Source of the DNA: Actinomycetes bacterium
Lineage (GTDB): Bacteria; Actinomycetota; CALGFH01
Direction of reading: 5' to 3'
Length of the DNA: 64,000 nt
Assembly (NCBI GenBank): GCA_036377075.1
Contig: DASUZB010000143.1
Coordinates: 15,577 to 79,576, forward strand
The notes under the pieces: generated by a model
Told to the model about the DNA's origin: nothing
Databases searched by the model: none
The model's input: only the letters and a program-made list of their open reading frames with translations
Shown here: one piece after another, positions 1,783-31,149 of the stretch
Position numbering within the stretch: the stretch's first letter is position 1
Layout of the letters: every line of letters begins with the position of its first letter
Program-made: the position numbers and the translations under genes

Positions 1783-2919
1783 GTGCCAGGTGGCCGTGAC
1801 GGATCACAACTCAACCTGCTGATCGAGCACCCCCGCGCCCGCATCGGACGGCGCGGCTTCCTGCGTGTCGCCGCGCTGCTCGGCGCGGCCGGCGCCGCGG
1901 GCTGCACCGTCGGCAAGGCGTGCCCGCCGACCGGCGCCGTCAACCGCCGGCCCGAGCAGCTCGTCAACATCTACAACTGGTCCGACTACATCGACGACCG
2001 GACCGTCCCGGCGTTCCAGGCGCACTCCGGCGTCCGCGTCAACTACGAGGTCTACTCGTCCAACGAGGACCTCATGGCCAAGATGCGCGGCGGCAACACC
2101 AACTTCGACATCGTCGTCCCGACCAGCTGGTTCCTGCCCACCTACAAGCGCCTCGGGCTGCTCGAGCCGCTGCCGCTCGACCTGATCCCCAACCTCAGGA
2201 ACCTGGACAAGGTGTTCGTCGAGACCGATTACGACCCCGGCAACAAGTACTCGGTGCCCTGGCAGTGGGGGACCACCGGGATCGGCTACAACTCCCGGCA
2301 CGTCCCCGGCGGCAAGGTCGACTCCTGGAAGTCGCTCTTCGAGCCCGACAAGGCGCTGACCGGCCGCATGTCGCTGCTCCGCGAGGTCACCGACCTGATC
2401 GCCTGCACGCTGATCTACCTCGGCAAGCAGCCCAACTCCACCAGCGACGCCGACCTGCAGGAGGTCGTCAGCCTCATCCGGAGCCTGCGGGGCAAGATCA
2501 ACAAGCTGTCGAGCGACACCTACATCGACGAGCTCGCCAGGAGCCGCACCTACCTGGCGCAGGGGTGGAGCGGCGACGTCTTCCAGGCGGCGGAGCGCAA
2601 CGCCGACGTCGTCTACACCATCCCGAGGGAAGGCTCGCTGCAGTGGGCCGACGTGATGTGCATCCCCAAGGGCGCCCCCCACGCGCGCAACGCCGCCCTG
2701 TTCATGAACTACGTGCTGCAGCCGAGCGTCAACGCGCGCATCAGCACGTATGTCTCGTATGGAACTCCGGTGCCGCTCGCCAAGGCGCTGATCCCCACCG
2801 ACCAGCTCAAGGACCCGAGCATCTACCCGCCGGCCAGCACCAAGCTCTCGATCGTCTCGATGGAGGGCGAGAAGATCCAGAAGTGGCAGGCGGCCTACAA
2901 CGCCATCCTGAAGGCCTGA
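1783..2919 (+). CDS. spermidine/putrescine-type ABC substrate-binding lipoprotein (PotD/PotF family)
   Basis: GTG start. Twin-arginine signal GRRGFLRVAALLGAAGAAGC with a lipobox. The body (NIYNWSDYID, VPTSWF, WQWGTTGIGYN, LAQGWSGD) is PotD-like. Confidence 0.85.
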   Translation: MPGGRDGSQLNLLIEHPRARIGRRGFLRVAALLGAAGAAGCTVGKACPPTGAVNRRPEQLVNIYNWSDYIDDRTVPAFQAHSGVRVNYEVYSSNEDLMAKMRGGNTNFDIVVPTSWFLPTYKRLGLLEPLPLDLIPNLRNLDKVFVETDYDPGNKYSVPWQWGTTGIGYNSRHVPGGKVDSWKSLFEPDKALTGRMSLLREVTDLIACTLIYLGKQPNSTSDADLQEVVSLIRSLRGKINKLSSDTYIDELARSRTYLAQGWSGDVFQAAERNADVVYTIPREGSLQWADVMCIPKGAPHARNAALFMNYVLQPSVNARISTYVSYGTPVPLAKALIPTDQLKDPSIYPPASTKLSIVSMEGEKIQKWQAAYNAILKA

Positions 2920-3066
2920 CGGGCCTGGTCCGGTCGGGGCGCCGATGGGCGTCGTTGGGGTCCTTCGCGGGTCGGATTCATCACTTCGGCGCGAAATGAC
3001 GCATACTTTCCCTACTGGGATGAAAGAAGAGTAAGTACGCAACCCCTACACGATCTGTAGGCAGAG

Positions 3067-3855
3067 ATGAGCGAGCAGCACGCCGCGCTCGGGGGGGAGG
3101 AACTGGCTGGGTACGGCGTGGAGCGGCAGCCGTGGAGGTCGACGCTCCCCCGGGTCCTGGCCACCGGGGCGTGGCTGCCCGAGCGGCTCAGGCCCGGGTG
3201 GACCCCGCCGCCGCCGGGCCGCCACGTCGCGCCGCCGCGCTTCCGCCTCGAGTCCGGCGTCGCCGTCGGCCTCTCCGCCGCCCTGCTGGTGGTGGTCGCG
3301 GTCTTCAGCGTCCCGCTCGCCCGCTTCGCCGGCCAGACGGTCCACGTGCGGGTGCCGGGCGTCGCGGCGCCGGTCGCGTCGCCGCTGGGGCCCCCACTGG
3401 GTCCGCCGCCCGGCAACCTGGTCGGCAACTGGAGCTTCGAGCGCGGCATCGGCGGCTGGGAGACGGTCGGGCCGGCGCTCGTCAACCGCGAGCTCGGCGG
3501 CCACAACTCGAGCGCGAGCATGCTGATCCGGCCGGTGTCGGACACCGCCGGCCCGGCCGGGATCATGGCCCCGGTGGGGGCCTCGTCGGTGCGGCCCGGT
3601 TCCAGTTTCGAGGCCACCGCGTGGGTACGGGCCGAGACGGTCGCCGCCGTGCCGGTGGCGCTGCACCTGTTCGTCGCGAACGGCAAGGAGGTCTCCCAGG
3701 CCGTCACGGTGACCCGACCGGGCGGGGCCTGGCTGCGCCTGCACCTGGTGCACCAGGTCGCCACGCCCGGTCCGCTCTGCGTCGAGCTGGTGGTCCTCGA
3801 GCCCGTGCGGGAGCAGGCGATCCTCGCCGACGAGATCTCGGTCAGGCCGGTCTGA
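3067..3855 (+). CDS. bitopic membrane protein with a CBM4_9-like domain; paralog of 957..1742
   Basis: Shares GNLvgNWSFE..GW..vG.A...RELGG and (Y/F)EATAWV blocks with 957..1742. Has a single TM segment. Confidence 0.65.
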   Translation: MSEQHAALGGEELAGYGVERQPWRSTLPRVLATGAWLPERLRPGWTPPPPGRHVAPPRFRLESGVAVGLSAALLVVVAVFSVPLARFAGQTVHVRVPGVAAPVASPLGPPLGPPPGNLVGNWSFERGIGGWETVGPALVNRELGGHNSSASMLIRPVSDTAGPAGIMAPVGASSVRPGSSFEATAWVRAETVAAVPVALHLFVANGKEVSQAVTVTRPGGAWLRLHLVHQVATPGPLCVELVVLEPVREQAILADEISVRPV

Positions 3856-3876
3856 GCCACCCCCGCAGCGAAGTCG

Positions 3877-4419
3877 CTAGTAGACCCAGCCGCCGTGCTC
3901 GTCGGTGCACCACGACCACCAGTCCTCCGGCATCTGGGACGCGGGGCGCCCGTCCCAGGAGTGGCCGACGCACGAACGCTGGCGGTCGCTGTCATAGTTC
4001 CCGACCATCCGCGTCCACCCGGGATCGCCGTTGCATGGCACGCCCGCGACCTCGTAGTAGACCCGCTCGCGGGCGTAGCCGTACGGGGTGTAGATCTGCC
4101 GTTCCACCCGGATGTGCAGCGGCGGCAGGTGCTTGCCGCAGGACTGGAACGCCCGGCCCCAGAACGCATGGCACTTCGAGCTGTAGCGTAGTTGCAGGGT
4201 CGTGTCCTGGTCGATGAACCACTCGCGCGGCGTGCTGGTGGCGGAGCAGTAGCTGGCAGGGTCCTTGCCGTTGCAGCCGGAGCCGCTGCAGGTGGCGGCG
4301 GCCGCGGGGCGGGCCTGCGCGACGGTGACGGCGCCGGTGGCCACGGCCAGCGCGAGTACGAGCAGGAGCTGCGCTCCCCTTGTGCGGATGATGGCGGCCA
4401 ACCTCCGTGTCTTGCGCAT
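3877..4419 (-). CDS. secreted DUF2690-like protein
   Basis: Signal peptide, then the CSGSGCNGKDP motif typical of DUF2690. GGAGG lies 9 nt upstream of the ATG at 4419. Confidence 0.65.
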   Translation of the reverse strand: MRKTRRLAAIIRTRGAQLLLVLALAVATGAVTVAQARPAAAATCSGSGCNGKDPASYCSATSTPREWFIDQDTTLQLRYSSKCHAFWGRAFQSCGKHLPPLHIRVERQIYTPYGYARERVYYEVAGVPCNGDPGWTRMVGNYDSDRQRSCVGHSWDGRPASQMPEDWWSWCTDEHGGWVY

Positions 4420-4503
4420 CAGGTGGTCCTCCAAGTGGTCCAGATGACTTCAGCGGGTCTTCGGGTCGCGGCGGTGACCTCGCGCGGCGGGCGCCAACCC
4501 CGG

Positions 4504-7500
4504 TCACGACGTTCCGGCGAGCCGGCCGTTGACCAGGCTCGCGTAGGCCGCCTGGCCGGTGGGGTAGGGATGGAACATGCCGGAGTCCCCGAGCGGGTTC
4601 GCCGCGCGGACCCACGAGCTGGAGGTCTGCGGGCAGGCGCGGTGCCCGGCCCAGATCCGCTCGGGGTCGACGTAGTCGATGCGGATCCCGGCGCGCTGCA
4701 GGTTGGCGACCACGCTGGCGATCGTCTGCGACATCAGGTCGGCGAACTGGTTGAGCAGCGCCCAGTCCGCCGCGTTGAGCGGGAAGCAGAGCCCGGCAGG
4801 GTCCGAGTCGTCGAAGGTGTCGTTGAACAGGCGGGGATAGCCCAGGACGACGATGCGGGCGTTCGGTGCCTTGGCGTGGACCGCGCGGTAGACGGTGTCG
4901 AGCTTGCTGGGGACCAGGTCCCGGATGACGTGGGGCTCGTACTGCTTGAACGGCGCGGGGTCCAGGTGCCCGCCGTGGGTGAGGTAGAAGTCGTCGTCGG
5001 AGCAGTGGCCCAAGGTCTCGATGCAGCCTTTCAGGATGTCGGCGAAGCGGACGTCGTTGCCGCCGATGGTCAGGCTGACCAGCGTCGTGTCGGCGTCGAG
5101 GTAGCCCTGGTCGACCTGCGCCATCTCGCCGGAGTGCCGGTCCGGATGCCCCCAGTCGGTGTTCTCCCCGGCGTTCTGGCCCGGGGTGTCGATCGCGGCG
5201 TCGGTGATGCTGGTCGTGATCGCCCCTGAGCAGGCGATGAACGCGAACGCGGCGGTGCCGGCGCCGGTGGCGGCCTCCTGCGCGATCGGCTGGGAGTGGC
5301 CGGGAAGGCGCACCTGGCGGGCGTAGGCGTCGTTGACGGACCGGTGGCAGGTGTTCACGGTCTCGCCGGCGTTGCCGAAATCGTCGACGAAGCTGTAGGC
5401 GCTGTTGGGGTCGTACGGCTTGTTCCCCTCGCCGGCGGAGTAGGAGTCGCCCAGCCCGACGTAGAAGGCCTGCGGCTTGACGGTCTGGATGAACGCCACC
5501 GCGTCGAAGGCGACGTCCTCGCCGCGGCCGTCCTCGGTGACGCTGCTCAGGCTGACGCTGGCGCCCGCGGCCAGGTTGAACACGCCGATGTCCACCCACT
5601 GGTCCCGCTGCCAGGCCTGGTTGACCACGCGGTGGCGGGTCTGGCCGTTGCCGAGCTTGATCCGGTAGTCCGCCTGGCGGGTCCAGGCGCCGTGGGAGGG
5701 GACATGGACCTTGATCCGCGTCCAGCCGGTCACGGTCGACGGCGGCGTCCAGGTGCCGGTCACCTTGAGGGTCGCATCGGCCCCGGCGCGGCTGTGGGTG
5801 AACCAGAAATGCCCGCCGAAGCCGGCGCTGACCTGGTGGAAGTCGACCTTGCTCGGGTAGACCGTGGCGCCGCCGGGCCCGGTGGCCGAGGCGAACTTGA
5901 GCGAGAACGAGTCGCGGCTGGTCCAGTTCTTGGCGCACGGGACCGGGCTTCGGACGCTGTCCAGGACGTCGTCGACGATCACGGCGCCGCCCGGCAGCCG
6001 GCGGGCGTCGCAGTCGGCCGGGTAGGGGTTGCCCGGCGGCGCGGGGCGGGAGCCGACGTCGGGGTAGACCGGGAGCGTGGTGCCACACCGGTGCGCGCAG
6101 TTGGTCTCCCAGGTGGCAGGCCGGTTCCACCAGCAGTGGAAGTTGGACAGGGCGCACAGGCCGGCGGCGTTGCCGCCCCCGTCGGTGGTGGCCCCGTAGG
6201 TGCAGTGGTTGACGCCCGGCTGGCAGAACGTCGCGAACGGCGGCGTGGCGGCCGCCCCGAGCTCCGAGCTCGGCGGGGCGTAGGCCGGGCCCCAGGTCTT
6301 GGCGATCCAGTCGTAGCGCTGCAGCGGCGTGTACGCCCAGCCGATCACCCGCTCCGGGTAGCTCCAGCTGTTGGGGTGCTTGGCGTCGTCGTAGGTGACC
6401 TGCAGGAACGGGTCGCGGTCCTGCGGGTAGTCCGGGTTGGCCGGGTTGTTGGCCCAGCCGAGCCCCCAGTTGCCGCCGGCGCCGCCGTTGTCGGTGCAGC
6501 TCGGCCCGGGCGAGCAGCCGGTGGTGTTGCCGAACTCGGCGTCACGGGGCTGCACGCCGCTGTTGTAGGCCCACAGCGCGAACCACCAGCTCTCCACGAA
6601 GCGCGGGTCGCCGCCGTTGGCGACGATGCCCAGCGCCCGGGTCTGGTTCCACTTGTCCTCCAGGAGCTGCAGCCCGGCGGCGATGTTGGCCAGGTAGTCG
6701 ACCGCGATGGCCTTCTGCTGCGTGTCGCTGTAGACCACGCCGGTGTCGACCCGCCGCATGCCGGTGGTCACCTGCGCGGCGCCGTAGCCGCAGTCGGCGT
6801 TCGCCCAGTCGACGACGTGGACGTTGCCGTCGTTGCCGTAGAAGCCGCCCTGCTCGAAGTTGCCGTACAGGCCGTCGACCACGTGCGGGCTGGCCTGCCA
6901 CATGTTGGACTCCTGCGCCAGCACTCCCAGCATGACCTGGGCCGGGACCGTGCCCCCGCCCTGCAGGGCGTGGTTGGGGAACAGCGCGCCCGGCGAGTAG
7001 GCGGGCAGGCCCTGCCCGGCCGGCCGGGTCACCAGGCGCAGCTTGTCCTGCACCGCCATGTCGACGGCCCACTCCGCCTCCTTGGGGCTGGGCTGGTAGG
7101 TCTGCAGGACCGCGTCGTTGCGCGGCACCGCGCAGGCACGGTCCGGGTCGGTCGGGTCGGTGGACGGGTCGGCGGCCAGCGCCCGTCCCGTCCTGCCACC
7201 ACCGGCCGCCGCGCGGCCCGCGCCGCCCGGCAGGGGCGACGGCGCCCGGTCGCCGTTGCCGGCCGTCTGCCGCGGCACGACGGTGAAGCGCGCCACCTTG
7301 CCGGTGCCGGTCACCCGGGCTGCGATGCTCACCGGGTCGGGCAGCCCGTCGCCCGGCGCGAGCCCCGTCCGCCGGGCCGCCTCCTTGCCCGTCGATGCGC
7401 TGGTCACCATGAGGCCGCCCTCGGTGGACACCTCCGCGCCGCCCGGGGCGGCGATGGCCCGCCAGCCGCCCGGCAGGCCGTGGCCTGCCGCCAGCCGCGC

Positions 7501-8433
7501 CGCGCCTGGTCCGGTCAGGAATACGCGGCCGCCGGCGCCGGCGCCGAGCCGCACCGCCCCGAGCGGCGCCGTGCCCAGCAGCGCGCTGCGGGCTCCTGCC
7601 AGGCGGCGCACCTGCACCTGGCTGCGCTCCGCGACCTGGTAGGCCAGGCCGCCGGCAGCGTCCGGGTGCAGCCGCGACGGCACGCCCGTCGCCGCCGCAA
7701 GCGTGCGGACCCTGCCGCCGGGCGCCACGGCGACCAGCTCGGCGCCGCGCGCGGCGGCGATCCCGCGGGCGTAGGGCACCGCGGAGGTCACCTGCCCCGG
7801 CACGCCCAGCCGCCAGCCGACGCGGCCGGTGGCGGCGTCCACCAACAGCAGCCGCGTCAGCGTGCGGTCGCGATTCGGCTCCAGCCTGGAGAGCACCGCC
7901 GCCTCGCCGGTGCCGCACCCGGGGTCGTGGTAGGCGATCGAGACCCGCTCGGCCAGCTTGACGACCCGGCCACCGGCGAGGTCGACCACCGCCGCGAACG
8001 CGCCGCGCTGGAACGCGGCCTCGCGGTTGACCCACTGGCGCGGCTCGTACACCACCACCATCCGGCGGCCCGAGCCGGTGACGCACCCCTGCCCGATCCA
8101 CTCCTCGGAGCCGACCCCCGGCTCGGTCAGGGTCGCCGCCGTGCGCCACCGGTACGCGCGCGCCGCGTCGGCGACCAGGACGTGCAGCCCGGTCTCGTCC
8201 CCGACCAGCGTCACCGCGCGGTCCGCCGACGCCTGCCACCCCCGGGGCAGCACCCGATCCGGGTCGGCCACGGCCGCCGGGCCGGTCGTCGGCGGCCGGG
8301 GGGATTGCCTGGCCGCCGGCCGGGCGGGCGGCGTGGCCACACCGGCCGAGGCCGCGGGCAGGGCGTTCAGCAGCGCGGCCGCGACCGCCAGCGCGACCGC
8401 CACGATCCTGGCCGTCCGAGCCCTCCCTGGCAT
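4504..8433 (-). CDS. large secreted multidomain protein: N-terminal repeat region, SLT-like lytic transglycosylase segment, golvesin-C-like domain, C-terminal SGNH/GDSL hydrolase
   Basis: Start chosen at MPGRARTARIVAVALAV (GGAGGGGG upstream). LAQESNMWQ...GYGAAQV is SLT-like. GLGDSYSAGEG and TIGGNDV are SGNH blocks I and III. Domain names were assigned by eye. Confidence 0.75.
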   Translation of the reverse strand: MPGRARTARIVAVALAVAAALLNALPAASAGVATPPARPAARQSPRPPTTGPAAVADPDRVLPRGWQASADRAVTLVGDETGLHVLVADAARAYRWRTAATLTEPGVGSEEWIGQGCVTGSGRRMVVVYEPRQWVNREAAFQRGAFAAVVDLAGGRVVKLAERVSIAYHDPGCGTGEAAVLSRLEPNRDRTLTRLLLVDAATGRVGWRLGVPGQVTSAVPYARGIAAARGAELVAVAPGGRVRTLAAATGVPSRLHPDAAGGLAYQVAERSQVQVRRLAGARSALLGTAPLGAVRLGAGAGGRVFLTGPGAARLAAGHGLPGGWRAIAAPGGAEVSTEGGLMVTSASTGKEAARRTGLAPGDGLPDPVSIAARVTGTGKVARFTVVPRQTAGNGDRAPSPLPGGAGRAAAGGGRTGRALAADPSTDPTDPDRACAVPRNDAVLQTYQPSPKEAEWAVDMAVQDKLRLVTRPAGQGLPAYSPGALFPNHALQGGGTVPAQVMLGVLAQESNMWQASPHVVDGLYGNFEQGGFYGNDGNVHVVDWANADCGYGAAQVTTGMRRVDTGVVYSDTQQKAIAVDYLANIAAGLQLLEDKWNQTRALGIVANGGDPRFVESWWFALWAYNSGVQPRDAEFGNTTGCSPGPSCTDNGGAGGNWGLGWANNPANPDYPQDRDPFLQVTYDDAKHPNSWSYPERVIGWAYTPLQRYDWIAKTWGPAYAPPSSELGAAATPPFATFCQPGVNHCTYGATTDGGGNAAGLCALSNFHCWWNRPATWETNCAHRCGTTLPVYPDVGSRPAPPGNPYPADCDARRLPGGAVIVDDVLDSVRSPVPCAKNWTSRDSFSLKFASATGPGGATVYPSKVDFHQVSAGFGGHFWFTHSRAGADATLKVTGTWTPPSTVTGWTRIKVHVPSHGAWTRQADYRIKLGNGQTRHRVVNQAWQRDQWVDIGVFNLAAGASVSLSSVTEDGRGEDVAFDAVAFIQTVKPQAFYVGLGDSYSAGEGNKPYDPNSAYSFVDDFGNAGETVNTCHRSVNDAYARQVRLPGHSQPIAQEAATGAGTAAFAFIACSGAITTSITDAAIDTPGQNAGENTDWGHPDRHSGEMAQVDQGYLDADTTLVSLTIGGNDVRFADILKGCIETLGHCSDDDFYLTHGGHLDPAPFKQYEPHVIRDLVPSKLDTVYRAVHAKAPNARIVVLGYPRLFNDTFDDSDPAGLCFPLNAADWALLNQFADLMSQTIASVVANLQRAGIRIDYVDPERIWAGHRACPQTSSSWVRAANPLGDSGMFHPYPTGQAAYASLVNGRLAGTS

Positions 8434-10439: not shown

Positions 10440-10460
10440 GATGATGGTGACGGGGAGGCG

Positions 10461-11114: not shown

Positions 11115-11142
11115 CAGTGAGTGCCAAGTATGGCACTCACTG
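11115..11142 (+). terminator. perfect 12-bp stem / 4-nt loop hairpin immediately after the response-regulator stop
   Basis: CAGTGAGTGCCA-AGTA-TGGCACTCACTG starts 1 nt after the TGA (11112-11114). A T-run follows at about 11174. Confidence 0.6.
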
Positions 11143-11145
11143 CTA

Positions 11146-11164
11146 CAACATTCGGCGTATGTTG
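11146..11164. promoter_or_regulatory. short palindrome (CAACAT-N7-ATGTTG) upstream of the TetR gene; possible operator
   Basis: Inverted hexamers at 11146-11151 and 11159-11164 in the A/T-richer spacer, 54 nt upstream of the TetR start. Confidence 0.25.
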
Positions 11165-11217
11165 CAATCGGCAGTTTTTGTCGCTCGGTTTGGTGGGTTT
11201 CGGCTACGCTTGACGCT

Positions 11218-20528: not shown

Positions 20529-21008
20529 ATGAGCCGCGGGACCGCGATCTTCCTCATCGTGCTCGGGGCGATCCTCGGGTTCGCCGTCACGGCAGAGATC
20601 AGCGGCATCGACATCCAGACCGTCGGCTTCATCCTGCTGGTCGTCGGCGTCGGCGGTCTGCTGTGGTCGCTGCTCCGGACCAGCGCGGACCAGGAGGTCG
20701 TGCTCCTCCCCGAGCCCGAACAGCCGCACCCGACGGTGGAGCAGGTCGACCCGGTGGTCCTGGCGGAGCTGGTCGGGCGGGTCCACGCGCTCGTCGGCCA
20801 GTCGAGGACCTTCCTCGAGGCCGAGGGCTACACCAACGAGCGCATCGACGAGCTGGCGGCCGACTTCGTCGCCGGCGACCACGGCCGCTCCAGGGACGAG
20901 TTCATCGCCTGGGCGGTGTCGCACGACCACCTCCCACGGCCGGCCGTGCAGGAAGAGGTGCCGACCGTGCGCCAGGAGCCGGTCACGCGCGAGGACGAGC
21001 CCGCGTAG
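20529..21008 (+). CDS. small membrane protein (two TM segments, acidic C-terminal half)
   Basis: GGGAGGA precedes the ATG at 20529. MSRGTAIFLIVLGAILGFAV...GFILLVVGVGGLLW. Confidence 0.6.
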   Translation: MSRGTAIFLIVLGAILGFAVTAEISGIDIQTVGFILLVVGVGGLLWSLLRTSADQEVVLLPEPEQPHPTVEQVDPVVLAELVGRVHALVGQSRTFLEAEGYTNERIDELAADFVAGDHGRSRDEFIAWAVSHDHLPRPAVQEEVPTVRQEPVTREDEPA

Positions 21009-21010
21009 CG

Positions 21011-21475
21011 TCAGCCGGCGATCTCCTCGAGGACCCTGGCGGCGTGGCCGTCGGCCTTGACGTCGTACCAGGCACGCCCGACGTTCCCGTGTTCGTCGAC
21101 CAGGAAGGTGGAGCGCAGGATGCCGATCACCGTCTGGCCGTAGCGGACCCGCTCGCCCCAGGCGCCGTACTGGTCGGCGACCGCGTGGTCGGGATCGCTG
21201 AGCAGGGTGAAGCGGAGGCCGTACTTGGTGCGGAAGCGCTGGTGCGAGGCGGCGTCGTCGGGGGAGATGCCGATCACCGGGACCTCGGCGGCCTGGAACG
21301 CGTGCAGGTTGTCGTTGAACTGGCAGGCTTCCTTGGTGCAGCCGGGGGTGTCGTCGGCGGGGTAGAAGTAGACGAGCACCTTGCGGCCCTTGAAGTCTTC
21401 CAGCGAGACCGGCCTGCCGTCCTGGTCGGGCAAGGTGAACGCGGGTGCCTGGTCGCCGGCGTCGAGCTTGGTCAT
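21011..21475 (-). CDS. bcp: thiol peroxidase / peroxiredoxin Bcp
   Basis: VLVYFYPADDTPGCTKEAC, the peroxidatic Cys motif of the Bcp/PrxQ family. Confidence 0.9.
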   Translation of the reverse strand: MTKLDAGDQAPAFTLPDQDGRPVSLEDFKGRKVLVYFYPADDTPGCTKEACQFNDNLHAFQAAEVPVIGISPDDAASHQRFRTKYGLRFTLLSDPDHAVADQYGAWGERVRYGQTVIGILRSTFLVDEHGNVGRAWYDVKADGHAARVLEEIAG

Positions 21476-21565
21476 GCACTGCCTCGCTTGGTGGGACGAT
21501 GCTGCCGCCGACGACTGTATTGGTTCCGCCGGGACGTCACCACCTGACCGCTGCGCACCCGACGA

Positions 21566-21593
21566 CCACCCGGGGCCCGCGGCCGCCGGGTGG
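21566..21593 (-). terminator. GC-rich hairpin downstream of the WXG100 gene
   Basis: CCACCCGG (21566-21573) pairs with CCGGGTGG (21586-21593), with a 12-nt loop. It lies 18 nt beyond the stop. No U-tract. Confidence 0.35.
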
Positions 21594-21610
21594 CCGCCGG
21601 TTGGGGGAAC

Positions 21611-21907
21611 TCAGCCCACCCCGAAGGACGCCGCGATGCCCTGCTCGGTCTGCGCGTAGCGGGCCGCTGCCTGTCCCGTCAGCTGCGCCATGCCGGTCAG
21701 CGCCTCGTTGAGCCCGCGCGCGTCCCGCTGCCACTGCTCCCAGAGGGCCTGGAAGCGCGCCTGGGCCATGCCGGCCCAGTCGGAGCCGAGCGGCGCGACG
21801 CTGTTGGTGAGCTGCGCCAGGATGCCGTCGACGTTGCCGGCGCCGGCCGTGAGCTGGGTCGCGACCTGCTGGAGCTGCTCCGGCGTGACCCTGATCCCGC
21901 TCGCCAT
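21611..21907 (-). CDS. WXG100-family type VII secretion substrate (EsxA/EsxB-like)
   Basis: 98 aa helical hairpin. W-x-G at SDWAGM. C-terminal YAQTE matches the YxxxD/E export motif. AAGGAGG RBS. Confidence 0.85.
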   Translation of the reverse strand: MASGIRVTPEQLQQVATQLTAGAGNVDGILAQLTNSVAPLGSDWAGMAQARFQALWEQWQRDARGLNEALTGMAQLTGQAAARYAQTEQGIAASFGVG

Positions 21908-21973
21908 GCCAGCCTCCTTGGTGGAACGCGGTGTTCGATCGTCTGGTAATACGGGACGGACGGCGCGGGAGGT

Positions 21974-23626
21974 TCATCCCGGCGTGCCTGGCCCTTCGGC
22001 CAGGCCGGCCAGCAGGCAGGCGGCCAGCTCGTGCATTGCGGTGCGGCAGCCGGCGCCCGCGCTCGGCCAGGCGAAGCTGCCGGCCGCGAGCTCGGCGGCC
22101 GCCCGCGGGGCGCTGGGGACCGTCACCAGGCCGCGCGCGTCCGGCAGGTAGCCGCCGAGGCGGTCCAGGTCGAGGCTGGCCCGGGGCGCGTCCATCGCGG
22201 TGGCCTGCCGTGGCGGGCCGGCACCGGCCGGCATGCGGTTGACCACCACGGTGACGGGCAGCCCGGCGCGGATCAGCGGCAGCCCGGCCTCGACCGCCAG
22301 GCTGGCGCCGACCGGGTCGGCATCGGTGACCAGCAGGAGCTGGTCGCAGGCCTGGACGGCGGCCTGGCCGGCAGGCGCGTGCAGCCCCGCCCCGCAGTCG
22401 ACCAGCACCAGCGGGTAGAGCGAGCGCAGCCGCTGGAGCGACAGCCGCCAGGCGCGCTCGTCGAGCGGCGCCCGCCGTGCCGGGGCGGGCAGCACCGCCA
22501 GGCCGTGGGCCGCGCGGCCCAGCCGCGCGTCCAGCCCTTCCCGGGTCGGCATCGCCCGCGCCAGCCGCGCCACCAGGTCGTCGGCCAGCCAGGCGGGGGG
22601 CCGCTCCGGGACGGGCGCGGCTCGTCCCAGCCGCGCGAGCAGGTCTTCGGCGCCCGCCTGCCGGTCGCCGGCGGAGCGCGCGGCAGTCCCCAGTGCGCCG
22701 GCCTCCCAGCCGATTCCGAGGACGCGCGCCAGCGAGCCTGGGTGGTCGCTGCCGCCGGCGTCGACGGCCAGCACCCGCTCCCGCCGGTGCAGCGCCAGCA
22801 GCGTGCCGAGCAGCCCGGTGACGGTGGTCGCGCCGACGCCGTCCCTGGCCGCGGCGACCGCGACCGTCACCGCCCGGCGGGGCAGCGGCGCCCCGACGGC
22901 CGCGTCGAGCTGCTCCAGGTAGGAGCTGGAGCGCCATGCCCGCCGCACCGACCGCAGCCGTCCGAGTCCCGCCCGGCCAGGCGGGCCGCCGGCCCGCGCC
23001 CCTGCCGCCGCCTCCTGCCATCTGGCCTGGCCCGGTCCCGCGTCCCTGCCTGGCGCCGGTTCGTGCCAGGTGGCGCCCGCCGTTCCCGGGTCGGGCGGGG
23101 CCTCGACCGGGGCGAAGGCGGCGGCGCCCATGGGCGCGGCGCCGCGCCGGCCGGAGGCGGCCTCGGTCGCCGCCAGCAGCGCCATCACCAGGCCGCCCTT
23201 GAAGCGCGGGGGGCGTGGCCGGGGAGCGGTCGTGGGCTCGCCGGCCTCGGTCGGGGCGGCGAGCAGCGCCTGGGCGGCCAAGGTGGCGCGTTCGGCCAGC
23301 GGGTGGCGTGGCGGCAGCGCGGCGGCGGTGCGCTCGACGGGGCTGCGGCCGTCCCTCGGCGGTGGCGGAGGCGGCGGCGCCGCCGGGGCGGGGCGGGGCG
23401 TGCCGAGGTGGAGCAGGGCGCCGTTGAGGATCCCGGCGGCAGCGAGCGACGAACCGGCCGGGAGCGGATGCCCACCGACCGGCGTGAGCGTCAGGCCGTC
23501 GGGGGCGGTGTCGTCGCCGAGCAGCCGTGCCAGCACCGGCAGCAGCTCGGCCACTGGCGCGTCGGCCGGCAGCGACAGGTCGCGCCGCCCACGCGGCCCG
23601 GCGACCGTGACCAGCAGGGTGCGCAC
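21974..23626 (-). CDS. YukD/EsaB-like ubiquitin-fold domain, Pro-rich linker and MinD/ParA-like domain with a degenerate Walker A
   Basis: N-terminus MRTLLVTVAGPRGRRDLSLPADAPVAELLPVLARLLG...GILNGALLHL is YukD-like. C-terminus VTVAVAAARDGVGATTVTGLLGT...VLAVDAGG...YPLVLVDCGAG is SIMIBI ParA/MinD-like. GTG start 3 nt after the eccC stop. Confidence 0.7.
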   Translation of the reverse strand: MRTLLVTVAGPRGRRDLSLPADAPVAELLPVLARLLGDDTAPDGLTLTPVGGHPLPAGSSLAAAGILNGALLHLGTPRPAPAAPPPPPPPRDGRSPVERTAAALPPRHPLAERATLAAQALLAAPTEAGEPTTAPRPRPPRFKGGLVMALLAATEAASGRRGAAPMGAAAFAPVEAPPDPGTAGATWHEPAPGRDAGPGQARWQEAAAGARAGGPPGRAGLGRLRSVRRAWRSSSYLEQLDAAVGAPLPRRAVTVAVAAARDGVGATTVTGLLGTLLALHRRERVLAVDAGGSDHPGSLARVLGIGWEAGALGTAARSAGDRQAGAEDLLARLGRAAPVPERPPAWLADDLVARLARAMPTREGLDARLGRAAHGLAVLPAPARRAPLDERAWRLSLQRLRSLYPLVLVDCGAGLHAPAGQAAVQACDQLLLVTDADPVGASLAVEAGLPLIRAGLPVTVVVNRMPAGAGPPRQATAMDAPRASLDLDRLGGYLPDARGLVTVPSAPRAAAELAAGSFAWPSAGAGCRTAMHELAACLLAGLAEGPGTPG

Positions 23627-23629
23627 CGC

Positions 23630-26600
23630 TCAGCCCTCCACCGCGCGGGCGGGCGCGGCCGGTTCCCGCCGGGGTCTGGTGGGCGCCTGGGCGGCCTGGA
23701 CGAGCACGGCGGCGCGGCGCCGGACCAGCTGACCGCGGCCGGGCGGGAGCGGCTCGGCCTTGCGCCCGCCGAGCAGGGGACCCTCGTCAGGGTCGCCGCT
23801 CATCAGCAGGCCGGGCGGCCCCAGCTCGCGGAGGCGCTGCAGCAGCGGCTCGAAGGCGCTGCGCGCGAGCCCGCCGACGCGCCGCGCGAGGACCAGGTGG
23901 AAGCCGACGTCACGGCCCTGCGCGAGGAACTCGGCGAGGCCGGCGAGCGGGTTGCCGACCGCGCCGGCGACCAGGTCGTAGTCGTCGACCAGCAGCACCA
24001 GCTCCGGGCCCGACCAGGCGCGGGCCTGGCGCAGCGCGCTCACCGACAGGTCGGCGGGCCGCCAGCGGCCCGCCAGCTCCGCGGCGAGCCGCGCGGCCAG
24101 CTCGGCGGCCGTCTCCGCGGTGCAGGCGTAGCCGAGCAGGTGCGCCTCGTCGACCGCGTCGAGCAACTGGCGCCGGTAGTCGACGACCGCGACCTGCAGC
24201 CGCTGCGGCGGCCACGCCGCCACCAGGCGCCGCGCCAGCCCGCCGAGCAGGGTGGTCTTGCCGCAGCGGTCGTCGCCGAGCACCAGGAAGTGCGGGTCGT
24301 CGCCGAACAGGTCGACCCGTGCGGGGCGCAGGCCGTGCTCCTCCAGGCCGATGGCGGCGCCCCGCTCCGCGTCGTCGCCGGAGTCGGGGAGGTCCTCGGG
24401 GCGCACCTCGCGCGGCAGGGTGCGCACCGGCGGCGCGGCGGGCGCCCCGCGCCAGCGCGCCGCCACGTCGGCGACCAGGCGCTCCACGCCGAGGGCGAGG
24501 CCGCCGACGTCGGCCAGCCCGTCGGCGCGCGGCAGCGCCGCCTGGAACACGGCGCCGGCGCGGTCCAGGCCCCGGCCCGGGACGCCGGCAGGCAGGGTGG
24601 CGGCCGCATGCCGGTCGATCTCCGACTCCACCGGGTCGTTGAGGCGCAGCTCCAGGCGGCCGCCGAGGTTGTCCCGCAGCGCCAGCCGCAGGTCGGTCCA
24701 GCGGTTGGCGGCGATCACCAGGTGGATGCCGTAGTGCAGCCCGGATGCCGCCAGCTCCAGCAGGTCGTCGGTCAGCTCGGCGAACTCGGCGGCGAACAGC
24801 GCCCAGTTGTCGACCAGCACCAGCACCTCGCCGTGCCCGCCGGGCAGCGCGCCGTCCCGCCGGGCGCGGTGGTGGGCGGCCATGCCGTCGAACCCGTGGC
24901 GCCGGAACGCCCCGGCCCGCTCGGCGGCGATCGCGCGCAGCTCGCGCACGAGGCGGTGCACCTGCTCCCGGTCGCTGCGGCCGCAGACCACGCCGACGTG
25001 GGGCAGCCCGGCGAGGGCGTGCAGCCGCCCGCCGCCGAGGTCGACCGCGTACACCTGGGCGTCGGCGGGGTCGTGGGTCAGGGCGAGCGCGGCGACCAGC
25101 GCGGCCAGCAGCGTCGACTTGCCCGACCGTGGCGCGCCGACCAGGGCGAGGTGGCCGCCGCCGCCGTTCAGGTCGAGCACGAACGGGACCTGCGCCTGCT
25201 CGCGGGGACGGTCGGCGAGGCCGAGCGGGACCGTGAGCCAGCCGGGCCCGCCCGGCCGCCGCGGCTCCGCGCCCAGGTCGAGCACCGCGTCCAGCGGCAG
25301 GGTTTCGGGCAGTGGCGCCAGCCACACCGGTCGCGCGCGCCGCCCCGGCGGCGTGGAGGCGCACAGCCCGGCGACCGCCACCTGCATCTCGGTGCGCACC
25401 GCCGCGCCGCCGGTATCGGGAATCACCGTGCCGGCGCCCGCAGCCTTGCCATCCGCGGGCGCCGGCGCGGCACCTTGGCCGGCCTCGGTGGCTGGGCCGG
25501 CCGTGGCTCCGGGCTCTGCCCTGGCGGCGCCGCCGAGGACGGCCAGCTCGCTGCCGAGGCCGCCGATGCCGAAGGCGTGGACCACACTGGTGGGCTCGGC
25601 CGCCGAACTGGTCACCCGCCACGGGCGGGTGACCAGCGCGGCCTTGAAGCGCTGCTTGGCGCCGTCGACCCGTAGCCAGCCGAGCCCCGGCAGGGGCGGC
25701 AGCTCGAACGCCTCCCGGCCCCCGAGGGCGACCACCGACTCCTCCGCGCTGAAGGTGCGCAGGCAGATGCGGTAGCGCAGGTGGCTCTCGAGGCCGCGGA
25801 TGCGGCCCTCGTCGAGCCGCTGCGTCGCCAGCAGGAGGTGGACCCCGAGGCTGCGGCCGGTGCGGCCGATGGAGACGAACAGGTCGAGGAAGTCGGGCCG
25901 TGCGGCCAGCAGCTCGCCGAACTCGTCGACGATCACCAGCAGGGACGGCAGCGGCGCCAGCCCGGCGTGCGGGTTGGCCGCCCGGTGGGCCTGGTAGTCG
26001 CGAGCCCGGTCGAAGTTGCCCGCCGCCGCCAGCAGGCGCTGGCGCCGCTCGAGCTCCCCGAACAGCGCCTCGTGCATGCGGCCGACCAGGGTCGGCTCGC
26101 GCTCCAGGTTGGTGATCACGCCGGCGACGTGCGGCAGGGCGGCCACCTCGGCGAAGGTCGCCCCGCCCTTGTAGTCGACCAGGACGAGCGCCAGCTCCTC
26201 CGGTGCGTGCCCGAGGGCGAGCCCGGTCACCAGGGTGCGCAGCAGCTCGCTCTTGCCCGATCCGGTGGCCCCGACCACCAGCCCGTGCGGTCCCATGCCG
26301 TCCTCGGCCGCCTCCTTGAGGTCGAGCGCGACCGGGCGCCCGTCGTCGCCGACCCCGATGGGGGTGCGCAGCAGCCCCGCGCCGCGGCGGCCCGGGTCCG
26401 CCGGCGGCCCGGCGCCGTCGAGGCCGAGGAGGCCGAGCAGGCCCTTGGAGTCGACCGTGGCCGAGCCTCCCCCGGGCGTGCGCAGCACCAGCGGGGCCAT
26501 CGCCCTGGCGATCGCCTCGCACAGCTCCACCGGGGCCGTGTCCGGCACCAGGCCGTGTTCGTGGCGGCCGTCGGGCGTCAGCTCGGCGTAGTCGAGCCAG

Positions 26601-27799
26601 CCGTCCGCGCCCAGCTCCAGCACCGCGCCGGCCCGCGCCGGCACCTCGTCGGGCCGCTCCACCAACGTGACGACCAGCACGCCCAGCTCGGCCGCGACCG
26701 TCAGGAGCCGGTCGAGGACGGGCAGGCGGCCCACCGGGTCCATGGGCCGGTAGCCGTCCACGATCACCACGACCGGCTGCAGGCCGACCGCCGCCGCGGC
26801 GCCGACCGGTGCGACCTCGGCGCGGCTCCGCTCCAGGTGCTCGAGCCGTGGCTGCACCAGCTGGGTGAGCAGCACGTCCAGGTCGTCCGGGTCGACCGTC
26901 AGGGCGACCGTCCCGCGGCCGTCCGCCGCGACCGCCCCGGCCTCGCGCACGTGCGGCAGCCACTTCATCCAGCTCCACGCCGGCTCGGCGGACGGCTCGA
27001 ACCAGGCGACCAGGCGCAGGTCGTCCGGGGCGTGCCAGATGGTGAGCTGGCAGACGAGCGCGCGCGCCAGCCCCCTGGCCGTCTCCCGGTCGCCCACCAC
27101 CGCCAGCGAGCCGAGCTCGCCGGCGGCGACCGTCAGCGGCATGCCCGCCAGGCGACGGTGGCCGTCGACCACCTCCCTGGCGGCGGCCTCGAGCTCGGTA
27201 ACGTACTCGACCAGCGGGTTGCTGCCGAGGTCGAGGCGGACCGGCACGGCCAGCGGGACGGTGCCGAGGCCGACGCGGGCGTGGAGGAAGTCCGGGTCGG
27301 TGCGGCGCCGCTCCCAGAGGTGGCGGCGCCCGGCGACCACCGGCCACAACGCGGCGACGGCCGGGTGGACGCGGGCTGCCGCCGCCCGCTGTGCGGCCGC
27401 CACCGCGTCGAGCCGGCGCCGCTGCTCGTCCAGGTGGGCGTGGTAGCGCTCGGTGTCGCGGCGGCGCTTGCGCCGCGACCCGCGCCGCTGCCCGACGTAC
27501 ATGGCGACCGCGAGGACGACGCTCAGCACCACGATCCCGCCGGCGACGGCGAGGAACAGCGGGTTGCGGTAGACGAAGGCGAAGCTCGCCATCCCGAGGC
27601 TGCCGACGAGGGGGAGCAGGACCTGCAGGAAGGCGCGCGGCGACGGGGGGTCGAGGGTCGGCGGCGCGGCCACGAGCACCGGCTCGCCGGCGACCGGCTC
27701 CGGGAACGCCCGCGCGGGGCGGTGGAACAGCACCGACCCTGGCGGGCCGTCGCCCGGGCCGGTCCGTTCGCCGGACCGGTCGGGTACCGTGGTCGTCAC
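23630..27799 (-). CDS. eccC: EccC-type FtsK/SpoIIIE type VII secretion ATPase (3 P-loop domains)
   Basis: Two N-terminal TM segments and no FHA domains. Walker A motifs GATGSGKS, GAPRSGKS and GDDRCGKT. Confidence 0.9.
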   Translation of the reverse strand: MTTTVPDRSGERTGPGDGPPGSVLFHRPARAFPEPVAGEPVLVAAPPTLDPPSPRAFLQVLLPLVGSLGMASFAFVYRNPLFLAVAGGIVVLSVVLAVAMYVGQRRGSRRKRRRDTERYHAHLDEQRRRLDAVAAAQRAAAARVHPAVAALWPVVAGRRHLWERRRTDPDFLHARVGLGTVPLAVPVRLDLGSNPLVEYVTELEAAAREVVDGHRRLAGMPLTVAAGELGSLAVVGDRETARGLARALVCQLTIWHAPDDLRLVAWFEPSAEPAWSWMKWLPHVREAGAVAADGRGTVALTVDPDDLDVLLTQLVQPRLEHLERSRAEVAPVGAAAAVGLQPVVVIVDGYRPMDPVGRLPVLDRLLTVAAELGVLVVTLVERPDEVPARAGAVLELGADGWLDYAELTPDGRHEHGLVPDTAPVELCEAIARAMAPLVLRTPGGGSATVDSKGLLGLLGLDGAGPPADPGRRGAGLLRTPIGVGDDGRPVALDLKEAAEDGMGPHGLVVGATGSGKSELLRTLVTGLALGHAPEELALVLVDYKGGATFAEVAALPHVAGVITNLEREPTLVGRMHEALFGELERRQRLLAAAGNFDRARDYQAHRAANPHAGLAPLPSLLVIVDEFGELLAARPDFLDLFVSIGRTGRSLGVHLLLATQRLDEGRIRGLESHLRYRICLRTFSAEESVVALGGREAFELPPLPGLGWLRVDGAKQRFKAALVTRPWRVTSSAAEPTSVVHAFGIGGLGSELAVLGGAARAEPGATAGPATEAGQGAAPAPADGKAAGAGTVIPDTGGAAVRTEMQVAVAGLCASTPPGRRARPVWLAPLPETLPLDAVLDLGAEPRRPGGPGWLTVPLGLADRPREQAQVPFVLDLNGGGGHLALVGAPRSGKSTLLAALVAALALTHDPADAQVYAVDLGGGRLHALAGLPHVGVVCGRSDREQVHRLVRELRAIAAERAGAFRRHGFDGMAAHHRARRDGALPGGHGEVLVLVDNWALFAAEFAELTDDLLELAASGLHYGIHLVIAANRWTDLRLALRDNLGGRLELRLNDPVESEIDRHAAATLPAGVPGRGLDRAGAVFQAALPRADGLADVGGLALGVERLVADVAARWRGAPAAPPVRTLPREVRPEDLPDSGDDAERGAAIGLEEHGLRPARVDLFGDDPHFLVLGDDRCGKTTLLGGLARRLVAAWPPQRLQVAVVDYRRQLLDAVDEAHLLGYACTAETAAELAARLAAELAGRWRPADLSVSALRQARAWSGPELVLLVDDYDLVAGAVGNPLAGLAEFLAQGRDVGFHLVLARRVGGLARSAFEPLLQRLRELGPPGLLMSGDPDEGPLLGGRKAEPLPPGRGQLVRRRAAVLVQAAQAPTRPRREPAAPARAVEG

Positions 27800-27825
27800 C
27801 GTCCACCTCCTCGTCCTACGGCAGG

Positions 27826-29568
27826 TCAGCGCGCCCGGCTCAGCACCGCCACCGCCGCGCGGGAGAACTCCGGGGTGAAGTCGCCGTTGCCGGCGCCGGC
27901 GCGGGCGATGCGGAGCAGGTCGGCGATCTCGAGCCGGCGGCGCTCGCCGCGCAGTGAGGCCAGGTTGGCCAGCCGGCCCCGGTAGGTGCGCCCGCGCGGG
28001 CCGACCCTGCTCGGTGCCGCGTCGATCACCGCGATCAGGTCGCTCACGGTGACCGGGTCGCTGCCGTTGGACACCACCAGGTCGACCGCCTGGCCCTGGC
28101 GCAGGGTGGCGCCGGCCGGCGGGTTGGTCTCCAGCACCTGGCCCTTGCCGACCTGGGGGTTGCGTACCAGCCGCAGCTTGCCGACGGTGGCGCCGGCCGC
28201 CCGCAGCCGCTGCACGGCCTCGGCCCGTGCCGCGCCGGCCACCGGCGGCACCTGGAGCGGCGCCGGCGTGGTCGGCGCCGGGGCGGTCGTCGCGCCGGTG
28301 CTGGCCGTCGGCAGGGTGGCGTCCGCGGCCCTGCCGGCGCCGACGTCGAAGACCAGCCCGGGCGCGACCAGCCCGATGGACGCCGCCACCACGATCGCCA
28401 GGCCCACGGCGATGGTCGCCAGCGCCAGCCGGTTCCGCCGCCGCGGCGGCTCGGCGAACCTGGTCAGGGCGCGCACCCGCTCCTCGTGCGGCGGCAGCCC
28501 GTCCAGCCCCGTCGGCGGCATGCCCAGCGGCGGCACCACCATGCCCGGCAAGGTCGGGATCGTGCCGGCCTCGTCCCCTCGCGCCGGCGCCGAATCGGGC
28601 TCGTCCTCGCCGGCGACCGCCCTGGCCGGTCCGCGCGGGCCGACCGCCGCCTCCGCGACGGCGGTGCCCACCGGCACGACGGGTTCACCGGCGGCCGCGT
28701 GTTCCGGCGGGCCGGTGGCGACCGGCTCGTCCACCCCCACCGGCACGGCCGGCACCACCGGCTGCGTGGCCGGGTCGGGGAGCTGGGCGAGGGCGTGGCG
28801 CAGCTCGGCGGCGGTCTGCGGGCGCTCGGCGGGGTGCTTGGCGAGCGCCCACATGACCGGCTCGTCCAGCCAGGCGGGCAGCTCCGGGCGGACCGTGCTC
28901 GGAGGGCGCGGGGACTCCTCGAGGTGGCGGCGCATCACCACGAACGGGGTCGGGCCGTCGAACGGCGGCTCGCCGGTGAGCAGCTCGAACAGGCAGCACC
29001 CGAGCGCGTAGAGGTCGGAGCGGTCGTCGGCGCGGCCGCTCTGGACCTGCTCGGGAGACAGGTAGGCGGCCGCCCGGTGACCCTGGGCCACCAGCGCGGC
29101 AAGGCCGAAGTCGGCGACCTGCACGAGGCCGTCCGGCCGCAGCCTGACCTTGCCCGGGGTGAGGCCGCCGTGGACCAGCCCTTGGGCGTGCGCCGCGCCG
29201 AGCGCCGCGCAGACCTGCGCGGCGACCTCGACCGCCCTTGCCGCCGGCGCGGGCCCCGCCGTGCGCTGCAGTTCGCGCACGGTGCGGCCCTCGACCAGCT
29301 CCATCACCACGAACGGCACGCCCTGGTCCTCGCCGAGGCCGAGCACGGCGACGACGTTCGGATGGTCGAGGCGCGCCGCCTCCCGGGCCGCGCGCAGGAA
29401 GCCGGCGCGCGCGCCCGCGTCCTCCGCGAGCTGCGCGTGCGCCACCCGCAGCGCCACGCGACCGGCGTTGTGCGTATCGGCGGCCTCGAACACCTGCCCG
29501 AGCGCGCTCGCCCCCAGCGGCCGGCCGAGCTGGTACCGGCCCGCGAGCAGCCTGCCTCCAGCCTCCAT
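27826..29568 (-). CDS. membrane Ser/Thr-kinase-fold pseudokinase with an extracellular PASTA domain and an unassigned C-terminal domain
   Basis: Hanks fold, but VALR replaces VAIK and HGGLTPGK replaces HRDLKPxN, while DFG, SPE and the later subdomains are retained. One TM segment (LALATIAVGLAIVVAASIGLV). PASTA-like VAGAARAEAVQRLRAAG...VDLVVSNG. Confidence 0.8.
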   Translation of the reverse strand: MEAGGRLLAGRYQLGRPLGASALGQVFEAADTHNAGRVALRVAHAQLAEDAGARAGFLRAAREAARLDHPNVVAVLGLGEDQGVPFVVMELVEGRTVRELQRTAGPAPAARAVEVAAQVCAALGAAHAQGLVHGGLTPGKVRLRPDGLVQVADFGLAALVAQGHRAAAYLSPEQVQSGRADDRSDLYALGCCLFELLTGEPPFDGPTPFVVMRRHLEESPRPPSTVRPELPAWLDEPVMWALAKHPAERPQTAAELRHALAQLPDPATQPVVPAVPVGVDEPVATGPPEHAAAGEPVVPVGTAVAEAAVGPRGPARAVAGEDEPDSAPARGDEAGTIPTLPGMVVPPLGMPPTGLDGLPPHEERVRALTRFAEPPRRRNRLALATIAVGLAIVVAASIGLVAPGLVFDVGAGRAADATLPTASTGATTAPAPTTPAPLQVPPVAGAARAEAVQRLRAAGATVGKLRLVRNPQVGKGQVLETNPPAGATLRQGQAVDLVVSNGSDPVTVSDLIAVIDAAPSRVGPRGRTYRGRLANLASLRGERRRLEIADLLRIARAGAGNGDFTPEFSRAAVAVLSRAR

Positions 29569-29659
29569 GACCCGTTCCCCCTGGCATGGATCATCCCTTC
29601 CGCGGCATTGCATACGGGACGGCCACGCCCCAGGGTTCAGGCGCGCAGGAATTCCCTCG

Positions 29660-31016: not shown

Positions 31017-31149
31017 GTACGAGGGAAGCTACCGAAACGGTTCATCCCTCACCAGCGGTGGTTGGGGGCTCCAACGCCGACTTCCACGTTCTTCCCTGGT
31101 GGGCGGCCTCGCCACCCGGCAATGGTGCGGACCGCGCCGGCCCGGCGGC

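Follow-up and report, generated by a model that had tools for sequence, protein, structure and literature searches.

Two forms of ubiquitin-like (Ubl) domain are recognised in type VII secretion systems (T7SS): the N-terminus of the membrane protein EccD in T7SSa and a free protein of 80 amino acids (aa) in T7SSb to T7SSj. ParA/MinD proteins are ATP-dependent dimerisation switches which place or assemble machines. A gene joining both modules is located directly downstream of the T7SS ATPase gene eccC in the 64,000-nucleotide stretch of contig DASUZB010000143.1 (positions 15,577 to 79,576; assembly GCA_036377075.1) analyzed here, which is referred to as the window. The host is an uncultured soil actinobacterium. 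The gene encodes a YukD-linker-ParA/MinD-like fusion protein with a degenerate P-loop; degenerate loops are termed dead and intact ones live in the following.

In ESX-3, the Ubl domains of EccD contact the DUF of EccC and EccE (PMC6986878). EsaB/YukD of T7SSb is an essential assembly factor, which binds EssC/YukB and connects the latter with the pseudokinase EssB/YukC; YukD is required for focus formation and killing (PMC12637312). EspI (Rv3876) of ESX-1 is a ParA-like, ATP-binding regulator of secretion. Its descriptions mention a P-loop/ParA-like domain and long stretches of disorder but no ubiquitin-like domain, and its Lys425 is called essential for ATP binding (PMC11302016). In T7SSf, the TadZ-like ATPase TsfV ties a ParA/MinD-type protein to another T7SS variant (PMC11217815). 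A YukD-ParA/MinD fusion was not found in full-text searches of the T7SS literature, nor is one included in the 2024 variant catalogue defining T7SSc-j (PMC11217815), and database names of the relatives are generic (‘EsaB/YukD family protein’, ‘MinD-like ATPase’). A first interpretation of the window, made from its letters and open reading frames only (the sequence-only reading), had not recognised the fusion as a described component, in agreement with these searches. The parts are known, namely the Ubl domain of T7SS and the ParA-like accessory proteins of T7SS and Tad systems. As far as we can tell, their combination, its tie to loci without EccB and EccD, and the recurrent pseudo-ATPase state are new.

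We read the fusion as a cytoplasmic structural subunit of a T7SS, the Ubl domain of which would dock on EccC while the ParA module would serve as a nucleotide-independent scaffold. This reading is favoured with modest confidence, slightly above even. Like the Ubl domain of EccD, that of the fusion is cytoplasmic and its gene adjoins eccC; in EccD, 11 transmembrane helices follow, whereas the fusion continues with a soluble linker and a ParA-like domain, without transmembrane segments. With T7SSb, it shares the Pfam family PF08817 and a locus which joins EccC, a kinase-like membrane protein, a Ubl domain and a single WXG100 protein. YukD, in contrast, is a free protein of ~80 aa and the Ubl domain in the window is fused to 470 further residues. 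The T7SSb pseudokinase is EssB-like, whereas the kinase-like protein in the window is PknB/PASTA-derived, and EccC in the window is devoid of FHA domains.

With EspI, the fusion has in common the T7SS locus, a long Pro-rich disordered region and a C-terminal ParA/FlhG-like domain. The two were compared by description only, and the analogy appears reasonable in architecture; EspI keeps the Walker lysine, whereas the fusion lacks both lysines and possesses a Ubl domain. Two EspI-like proteins are encoded elsewhere in the same genome (G000), on contigs C88 (ParA-like match at 73477..73911, minus strand) and C311 (~9839-11599). Both have a long, disordered N-terminus rich in Pro, Ala and Glu, a live KGGVGKTT ParA domain and a common GW(R/Q)xxVY..T.G motif; the gene on C311 is located ~4 kb from a Ser/Thr kinase gene.

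A like design is found in TadZ/CpaE and Ssd, where a small N-terminal docking domain precedes a domain of the ParA/MinD type, by which a secretion or pilus machine is localised or assembled. The N-terminal domain of TadZ is receiver-like, whereas that of the fusion has a ubiquitin fold. In live-type loci of the fusion family, the gene immediately ahead of the fusion encodes a SAF-domain, CpaB/RcpC-like protein, which is a further likeness to Tad systems. MinD, FlhG and Soj-ParA share the fold, the switch-I Asp and the Walker B Asp with the fusion, but their KGGxxGK[ST] motif is destroyed in the latter and ~40 residues are inserted after switch I.

The N-terminal domain (for coordinates, see Table 1) matches Pfam YukD over residues 6-74 (profile positions 4-76 of 76, E 1.7e-16, 61.2 bits at a cut-off of 27). 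A model of residues 1-80, computed with AlphaFold2 (AF2) from 14 homologues, reaches a predicted local distance difference test value (pLDDT) of 90 and has the topology beta-beta-alpha-beta-beta. The best Foldseek matches of this model in the PDB are the Ubl domains of EccD1 (4kv2; 32% identity, template modelling (TM) score 0.74), EccD3 and EccD5, followed by ubiquitins and SUMOs; over the EccD structures 4kv2, 6umm/6sgw (ESX-3) and 7b9s (ESX-5), the TM-scores range from 0.74 to 0.84. When the family profile was searched against PDB sequences, the EccD1 Ubl domain (4kv2) was found at E 1e-5. A C-terminal Gly-Gly for conjugation is absent, and the sequence continues with ...HLGTPRPAP. The protein is not an EccD: a hydropathy scan finds no transmembrane segment, and the NCBIfam EccD model TIGR03920 scores 34.6 bits at a cut-off of 94.95, aligning over profile positions 1-140 of 455 only.

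In the full-length AF2 model (overall pLDDT 74), the linker has pLDDT values < 50 over residues 81-87, 128-144 and 158-215. Its length differs among homologues and the family alignment (A1) contains large indels. It is interrupted by a conserved island of the pattern DG[RL][TS]PxER[TS]xAxLP..., in which P96, R99 and R113 are invariant in dead and live clades. The island is modelled as two short helices (pLDDT 85-90) and is a candidate docking motif.

For residues 226-545, Foldseek returned ParA (3ea0, TM-score 0.78-0.79), FlhG, MinD, Soj, BcsQ and FleN from the PDB, all with a probability of 1.0; target-normalised TM-scores of the matches to 3ea0, MinD, FlhG and Soj are 0.64-0.79. The ParA core is modelled with pLDDT 85-95, the family profile finds archaeal MinD among PDB sequences at E 1e-8, and identity to relatives with an intact P-loop is 43% (BLAST) to 47% (A1). 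Pfam matches are sub-threshold for CbiA (PF01656; 13.6 vs 25.4) and AAA_31 (PF13614; 16.9 vs 27), and the match to BcsQ (22.4 vs 21.3) spans 40 residues only; PF01656 does occur in live relatives. An insertion after switch I is confined to P0002-P0022 in A1, has pLDDT values of 44-69 and is the fastest-evolving folded segment. Thus, the three modules which the sequence-only reading had proposed, i.e., a YukD/EccD-N ubiquitin fold in the first ~75 aa, a Pro/Ala-rich linker and a C-terminal SIMIBI ParA/MinD architecture, are each borne out by profile searches, alignment or structural models.

The same reading had pointed out that both lysines of the P-loop are absent and had picked out three motifs of the C-terminal domain. 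The motifs are located where it had placed them (Table 1), and an alignment with SPKGGVGKTT relatives confirms the loss: R261 stands in place of the signature Lys, D262 in place of the second Gly and A266 in place of the Lys of GK[ST], with T267 and T268 retained. An intact Walker A elsewhere, which would have spoken against a dead P-loop, is absent, as no [AG]xxxxG[KR][ST] is found anywhere in the 550 aa, and the sole lysine of the protein (K143) is in the linker. Within the dead clade, the former Lys position in A1 is occupied by R, S, Q, H or G and the former Gly position by D, H, P, G, E or A, whereas G263, G265 and T268 are fixed. Drift at the lost positions together with fixed loop glycines and T268 fits a loss of ligand contacts under retention of the fold. 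Judged from these residues, the C-terminal domain probably neither binds nor hydrolyses ATP any longer.

The dead clade to which the target belongs is made up of ~25 clusters (90% identity). It is monophyletic (100/100) and is set off by a long stem branch (0.93 substitutions per site) within a family whose members mostly carry KGGVGKTT. With a live member as query, > 1000 clusters (90% identity) of YukD-ParA fusions were obtained at E < 1e-5. Among the best 120 of these, nearly all combine PF08817 with PF01656, and all those with a name come from metagenome-assembled genomes (MAGs) assigned to Actinomycetota or Dormibacterota. In uncultured members of these two phyla, the fusion as such is common, mostly with an intact P-loop.

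An exhaustive profile search gave 171 clusters at 50% identity (E < 1e-30). The best 150 representatives of such clusters were aligned to the family profile, and 125 cover the P-loop. Both lysines are kept in 83 representatives, neither in 34 and one in 8; among representatives with a YukD domain, 52 have both and 24 neither. In a tree of 106 representatives, calculated after removal of the P-loop columns, a minimum of 10 switches between live and non-live state is needed, a count which is approximate, since the tree was a quick one with many weak nodes. Several dead rows are nested within live clades with SH-aLRT ≥ 96. A single origin of the dead P-loop is excluded and the number of independent losses is approximately 10. 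The dead P-loop is not peculiar to the target, as it recurs across the family and in the second paralogue of this genome. Evidently, a nucleotide-free ParA module is tolerated, or repeatedly selected, by this family.

In species-representative genomes, 23 fusion loci were found (Streptosporangiaceae MAGs, unclassified Actinomycetota and Dormibacterota), 14 of which have eccC within 8 kb. The order of the Streptosporangiaceae-type locus is a divergent WXG100 gene, eccC, a gene for a YukD and Gly/Pro-rich protein, a gene for a SAF-domain membrane protein, and the fusion. In two live-type loci from Streptosporangiaceae MAGs (L016, 393-8849; L018, 1999-9812), eccC and the YukD-ParA gene are separated by two additional genes, one for another protein with a YukD domain and a low-complexity part of ~400 aa rich in Gly and Pro, the other for a SAF-domain, CpaB/RcpC-like protein with a single transmembrane segment. 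Hence, Tad-pilus-like parts are present within these T7SS loci.

In the window, the fusion is gene 5 of 6 co-directional genes, in the order ECF sigma factor, RskA-type anti-sigma factor, membrane protein with Pkinase and PASTA domains, eccC, fusion and WXG100. EccC has three FtsK domains, the P-loops of which are all intact (GSGKS, SGKST and CGKTT). The PASTA kinase-like protein has a single transmembrane segment at 394-427, and its gene is syntenic in every dead-clade member with readable upstream DNA. The WXG100 gene has its own Shine-Dalgarno sequence, AAGGAGG, ahead of the ATG. DUF2203/MarR and bcp border the block on opposite sides.

This six-gene order recurs in the close relatives with readable flanks, i.e., in a MAG (L003), two NCBI assemblies (L030 and L031) and an ENA contig (L033). 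Two JGI contigs carrying P0004 (upstream part incomplete) contain the eccC-fusion pair, and the fuller one adds WXG100 and bcp; L032 ends in a cut gene of 35 aa at the place of WXG100 on the fuller JGI contig. In the live relative L001, eccC, fusion and WXG100 have the same order as in the window. Thus, linkage to eccC is conserved in the dead clade and in this live relative. Neither EccB nor EccD was found in the whole genome (completeness estimated at 100%), and the window fusion and a paralogue on contig C167 are its only two YukD domains. A further WXG100 gene with 67% identity to the window copy is an orphan outside any T7SS cluster (C56, 20691..21014, minus strand), directly downstream of imuA'/imuB-like mutasome genes and adjoining an S8 subtilisin-like protease gene.

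The fusion starts with GTG. Its GC content by codon position is 0.85/0.65/0.93 (0.93 at the third position, GC3), and it is the sole frame of this region with a coding-type composition. In A1, MRTLLVTVAG is the shared start of all fusion homologues. The stop codon of eccC (TGA) and the GTG are separated by 3 nt, which, together with a Shine-Dalgarno sequence inside eccC, suggests translational coupling. A promoter and terminator scan of 20900-31300 detected nothing and is uninformative on operon structure. A pseudogene or an assembly artefact was ruled out by the intact frame in many independent metagenome contigs, the conserved start and a ratio of non-synonymous to synonymous substitutions (dN/dS) < 1. 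At the C-terminus, ...LVADWPRLGL is conserved in most family members; in the target and in P0004 and P0005, its two nearest relatives in A1 whose tails match, it is replaced by ...LLAGLAEGPGTPG-like tails.

Table 1. Features of the fusion gene and of its locus in the window. Residues refer to the fusion protein.
Feature	Position	Strand	Residues	Evidence
Whole gene, YukD-linker-ParA/MinD-like fusion protein, 550 aa	21974..23626	-		ORF and translation
Ubiquitin-like (YukD/EccD-N type) beta-grasp domain	23393..23626	-	1-78	Pfam, AF2, Foldseek, family profile
Pro/Ala-rich, largely disordered linker	22952..23392	-	~79-225	AF2 pLDDT, alignment A1
Conserved linker island (DGRSPVERTAAALPPRHPLAERA...)	23252..23356	-	91-125	Invariant columns in A1, AF2
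ParA/MinD-fold (SIMIBI) domain	21992..22951	-	226-545	Foldseek, profile search, identity to relatives
Degenerate Walker A, AARDGVGATT	22823..22852	-	259-268	Alignment with SPKGGVGKTT relatives
Switch-I/Walker A'-like strand, VLAVDAGG (D289 family-invariant)	22751..22774	-	285-292	Alignment, sequence
Dead-clade-specific insertion after switch I (~40 residues)	22577..22720	-	~303-350	Alignment A1, AF2, dN/dS
Walker B-like strand, LVLVDCGAG (D410 and C411 invariant)	22385..22411	-	406-414	Alignment, sequence
C-terminal tail	21974..22030	-		
Shine-Dalgarno sequence GGAGGG within the 3' end of eccC, 7 nt upstream of the fusion GTG	23634..23639	-		Sequence read directly
eccC, membrane FtsK/SpoIIIE-type T7SS ATPase, 1389 aa, directly upstream of fusion	23630..27799	-		Pfam FtsK_SpoIIIE, E 6e-74, 3 stretches
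WXG100 (Esx) gene, 66 nt downstream of fusion	21611..21907	-		Pfam WXG100, E 1.6e-22
PASTA-bearing Ser/Thr-kinase-like membrane protein (putative pseudokinase), upstream of eccC	27826..29613	-		Pfam Pkinase and PASTA
RskA-type anti-sigma factor, head of block	29660-30514	-		Pfam, conserved synteny
ECF sigma factor, head of block	30453-31016	-		Pfam, conserved synteny

Selection was estimated by the Nei-Gojobori method, per region between the target and three relatives and per gene for one genome pair; extreme GC3 probably deflates dS and so inflates all ratios. dN/dS is 0.29-0.55 for the YukD domain, 0.22-0.57 for the P-loop region, 0.43-0.64 for the whole ParA domain and 0.63-0.72 for the clade-specific insertion. 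By gene, the values are 0.54 (fusion), 0.57 (PASTA kinase-like gene), 0.46 (WXG100), 0.37 (eccC), 0.37 (bcp), 0.19 (acyl-CoA dehydrogenase) and 0.08 (sigma factor). The fusion is under purifying selection; having a dN/dS < 1, yet similar to that of its locus partners, it is constrained but fast-evolving.

The second eccC of the genome is 49% identical to the one in the window and overlaps by 4 nt with a YukD-ParA-like gene of 418 aa. This pair lies outside the window (contig C167 of G000, 2684..8208; L047, 3907-9413) and is inserted between ispG/GNAT (DUF4081) and rimP-nusA-infB; no WXG100 gene adjoins it. The P-loop of the paralogue is dead as well (GATPRAGATT), and its Walker B reads VVADCGPG. 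The arrangement is repeated on a 275-kb ENA contig (P0221, P-loop SAAPGVGGTT), and orthologues of the paralogue are present in genomes of the same genus and family. In the first tree, the placement of the paralogue was unreliable due to long-branch attraction with L025. A strict coupling between a dead P-loop and the kinase-like gene was ruled out, since neither the dead paralogue on C167 nor its orthologue has a kinase neighbour.

The system in the window would be a reduced, non-canonical T7SS, consisting of EccC, a single WXG100 protein, the PASTA putative pseudokinase and the fusion, without EccB, EccD, EccE and MycP. With EccD missing, the EccC-docking Ubl domain would be supplied by the fusion. 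By non-covalent binding to the cytoplasmic DUF/stalk of EccC, the domain may assemble or stabilise the translocon, as in EccD and YukD/EsaB, and it may also bridge EccC to the PASTA putative pseudokinase, by analogy with YukD-YukB-YukC. In live relatives, assembly or placement is probably made dependent on ATP by the ParA module. Members of the dead clade would have kept it as a nucleotide-independent module for interaction, dimerisation or positioning, so that an ATP-gated assembly factor may have turned into a frozen, permanent scaffold.

Several points weigh against this interpretation. We infer the contacts of the Ubl domain with EccC and with the kinase-like protein from analogy. Neither the second locus nor the live-clade loci contain the kinase-like gene, hence YukC-like bridging is not general. 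Some members of the family are located away from eccC, namely two Dormibacterota loci (L010 and L013), P0028 (next to a LuxR-type regulator) and P0180 (next to a PQQ-repeat protein). These orphans rule out an obligatory linkage of the family to eccC, and thereby to T7SS. With a dN/dS of ~0.5, compared to 0.37 for eccC and 0.08-0.19 for housekeeping genes, the constraint on the fusion is modest. Finally, T267/T268, D289 and D410 are retained and may, as judged from the residues, allow weak or non-canonical nucleotide binding.

The last point leads to an alternative in which the ParA-like domain would have remained a sensor of nucleotides. It would bind ATP, or another nucleotide or phosphate ligand, in a non-canonical manner, e.g., by R261, T267/T268, D289 and D410, and tune secretion to the energy state, as EspI does for ESX-1. 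Invariance of G263, G265, T268 and of the switch-I and Walker B Asp is consistent with a ligand site; K-to-R variants (GRTT) occur in some relatives, NCBIfam has a class of ATPases with a KGGVGR motif, and EspI provides the precedent of a ParA-like, ATP-binding T7SS regulator (PMC11302016). We consider this alternative unlikely, since both lysines are lost, Gly262 has become Asp, and the equivalent of Lys425, called an essential ATP-binding residue in EspI, is among the lost residues. In addition, the former Lys and Gly positions drift freely within the clade, at odds with a new and specific ligand site, and an insertion of ~40 residues has arisen beside switch I. In another alternative, the Ubl domain is the only functional part and the ParA-like domain a decaying relic, carried along by its fusion. 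The lost catalytic motif, the long stem branch and the relatively high dN/dS of the ParA domain and of its insertion would be expected in this case. Yet frameshifts, stops and truncations are absent from at least 17 diverged representatives (identity to the target 56-85% by BLAST and 66-88% in A1), and of the 34 invariant columns, many fall in the ParA domain (D410, C411, N463 and the W520 region). The well-modelled core, the dN/dS clearly < 1 and the retention of the full domain in all independent dead lineages argue in the same direction. Moreover, stand-alone YukD proteins exist, so that a useless ParA domain could have been lost altogether. Decay is quite improbable.

A role outside secretion is very improbable. 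Here, the fusion would be a positioning or division protein of the ParA/MinD/Ssd type, or a regulator, which merely neighbours eccC. Several family members are indeed distant from any eccC, and the live relative P0025 weakly matches the Ssd/CpaE-like model TIGR03815 (37.8 bits, below the cut-off of 154.45); the target has no match to it. To our knowledge, however, the YukD-type Ubl domain is almost exclusive to T7SS. The nearest structural relatives of the domain are the Ubl domains of EccD, the two paralogous eccC genes of this genome are each trailed by a fusion (3-nt gap and 4-nt overlap), and the eccC-fusion pairing is conserved across clades.

Taking the fusion as a structural T7SS subunit, a wider proposal can be made, which is tentative and to which we give less than even confidence. 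YukD-ParA fusions would mark an undescribed T7SS subtype of uncultured soil Actinomycetota, which lacks EccB, EccD, EccE and MycP and in which a soluble Ubl-ParA protein takes the place of membrane-bound EccD in organising EccC. The ParA module, at first an ATP-gated switch for assembly or positioning, would have become a nucleotide-free scaffold about 10 times. In the present lineage, it would be joined by a PASTA putative pseudokinase, convergent with the YukD-YukB-YukC core of T7SSb in Bacillota.

The value of the finding is mechanistic and evolutionary, the organisms all being uncultured and none of them a pathogen. A third widespread form of the Ubl domain, tethered to a ParA/MinD module in genomes without EccB and EccD, would extend the T7SS catalogue to uncultured Actinomycetota and Dormibacterota. 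It would also offer a minimal system, made up of EccC, Ubl-ParA and WXG100 and optionally the kinase-like protein, for probing the effect of the Ubl domain on EccC. As the P-loop died repeatedly and independently while the domain was kept, the family provides a clean natural experiment on the change of a SIMIBI ATPase into a pseudo-enzyme, and this recurrence bears on the role of EspI-like ParA proteins in ESX systems.

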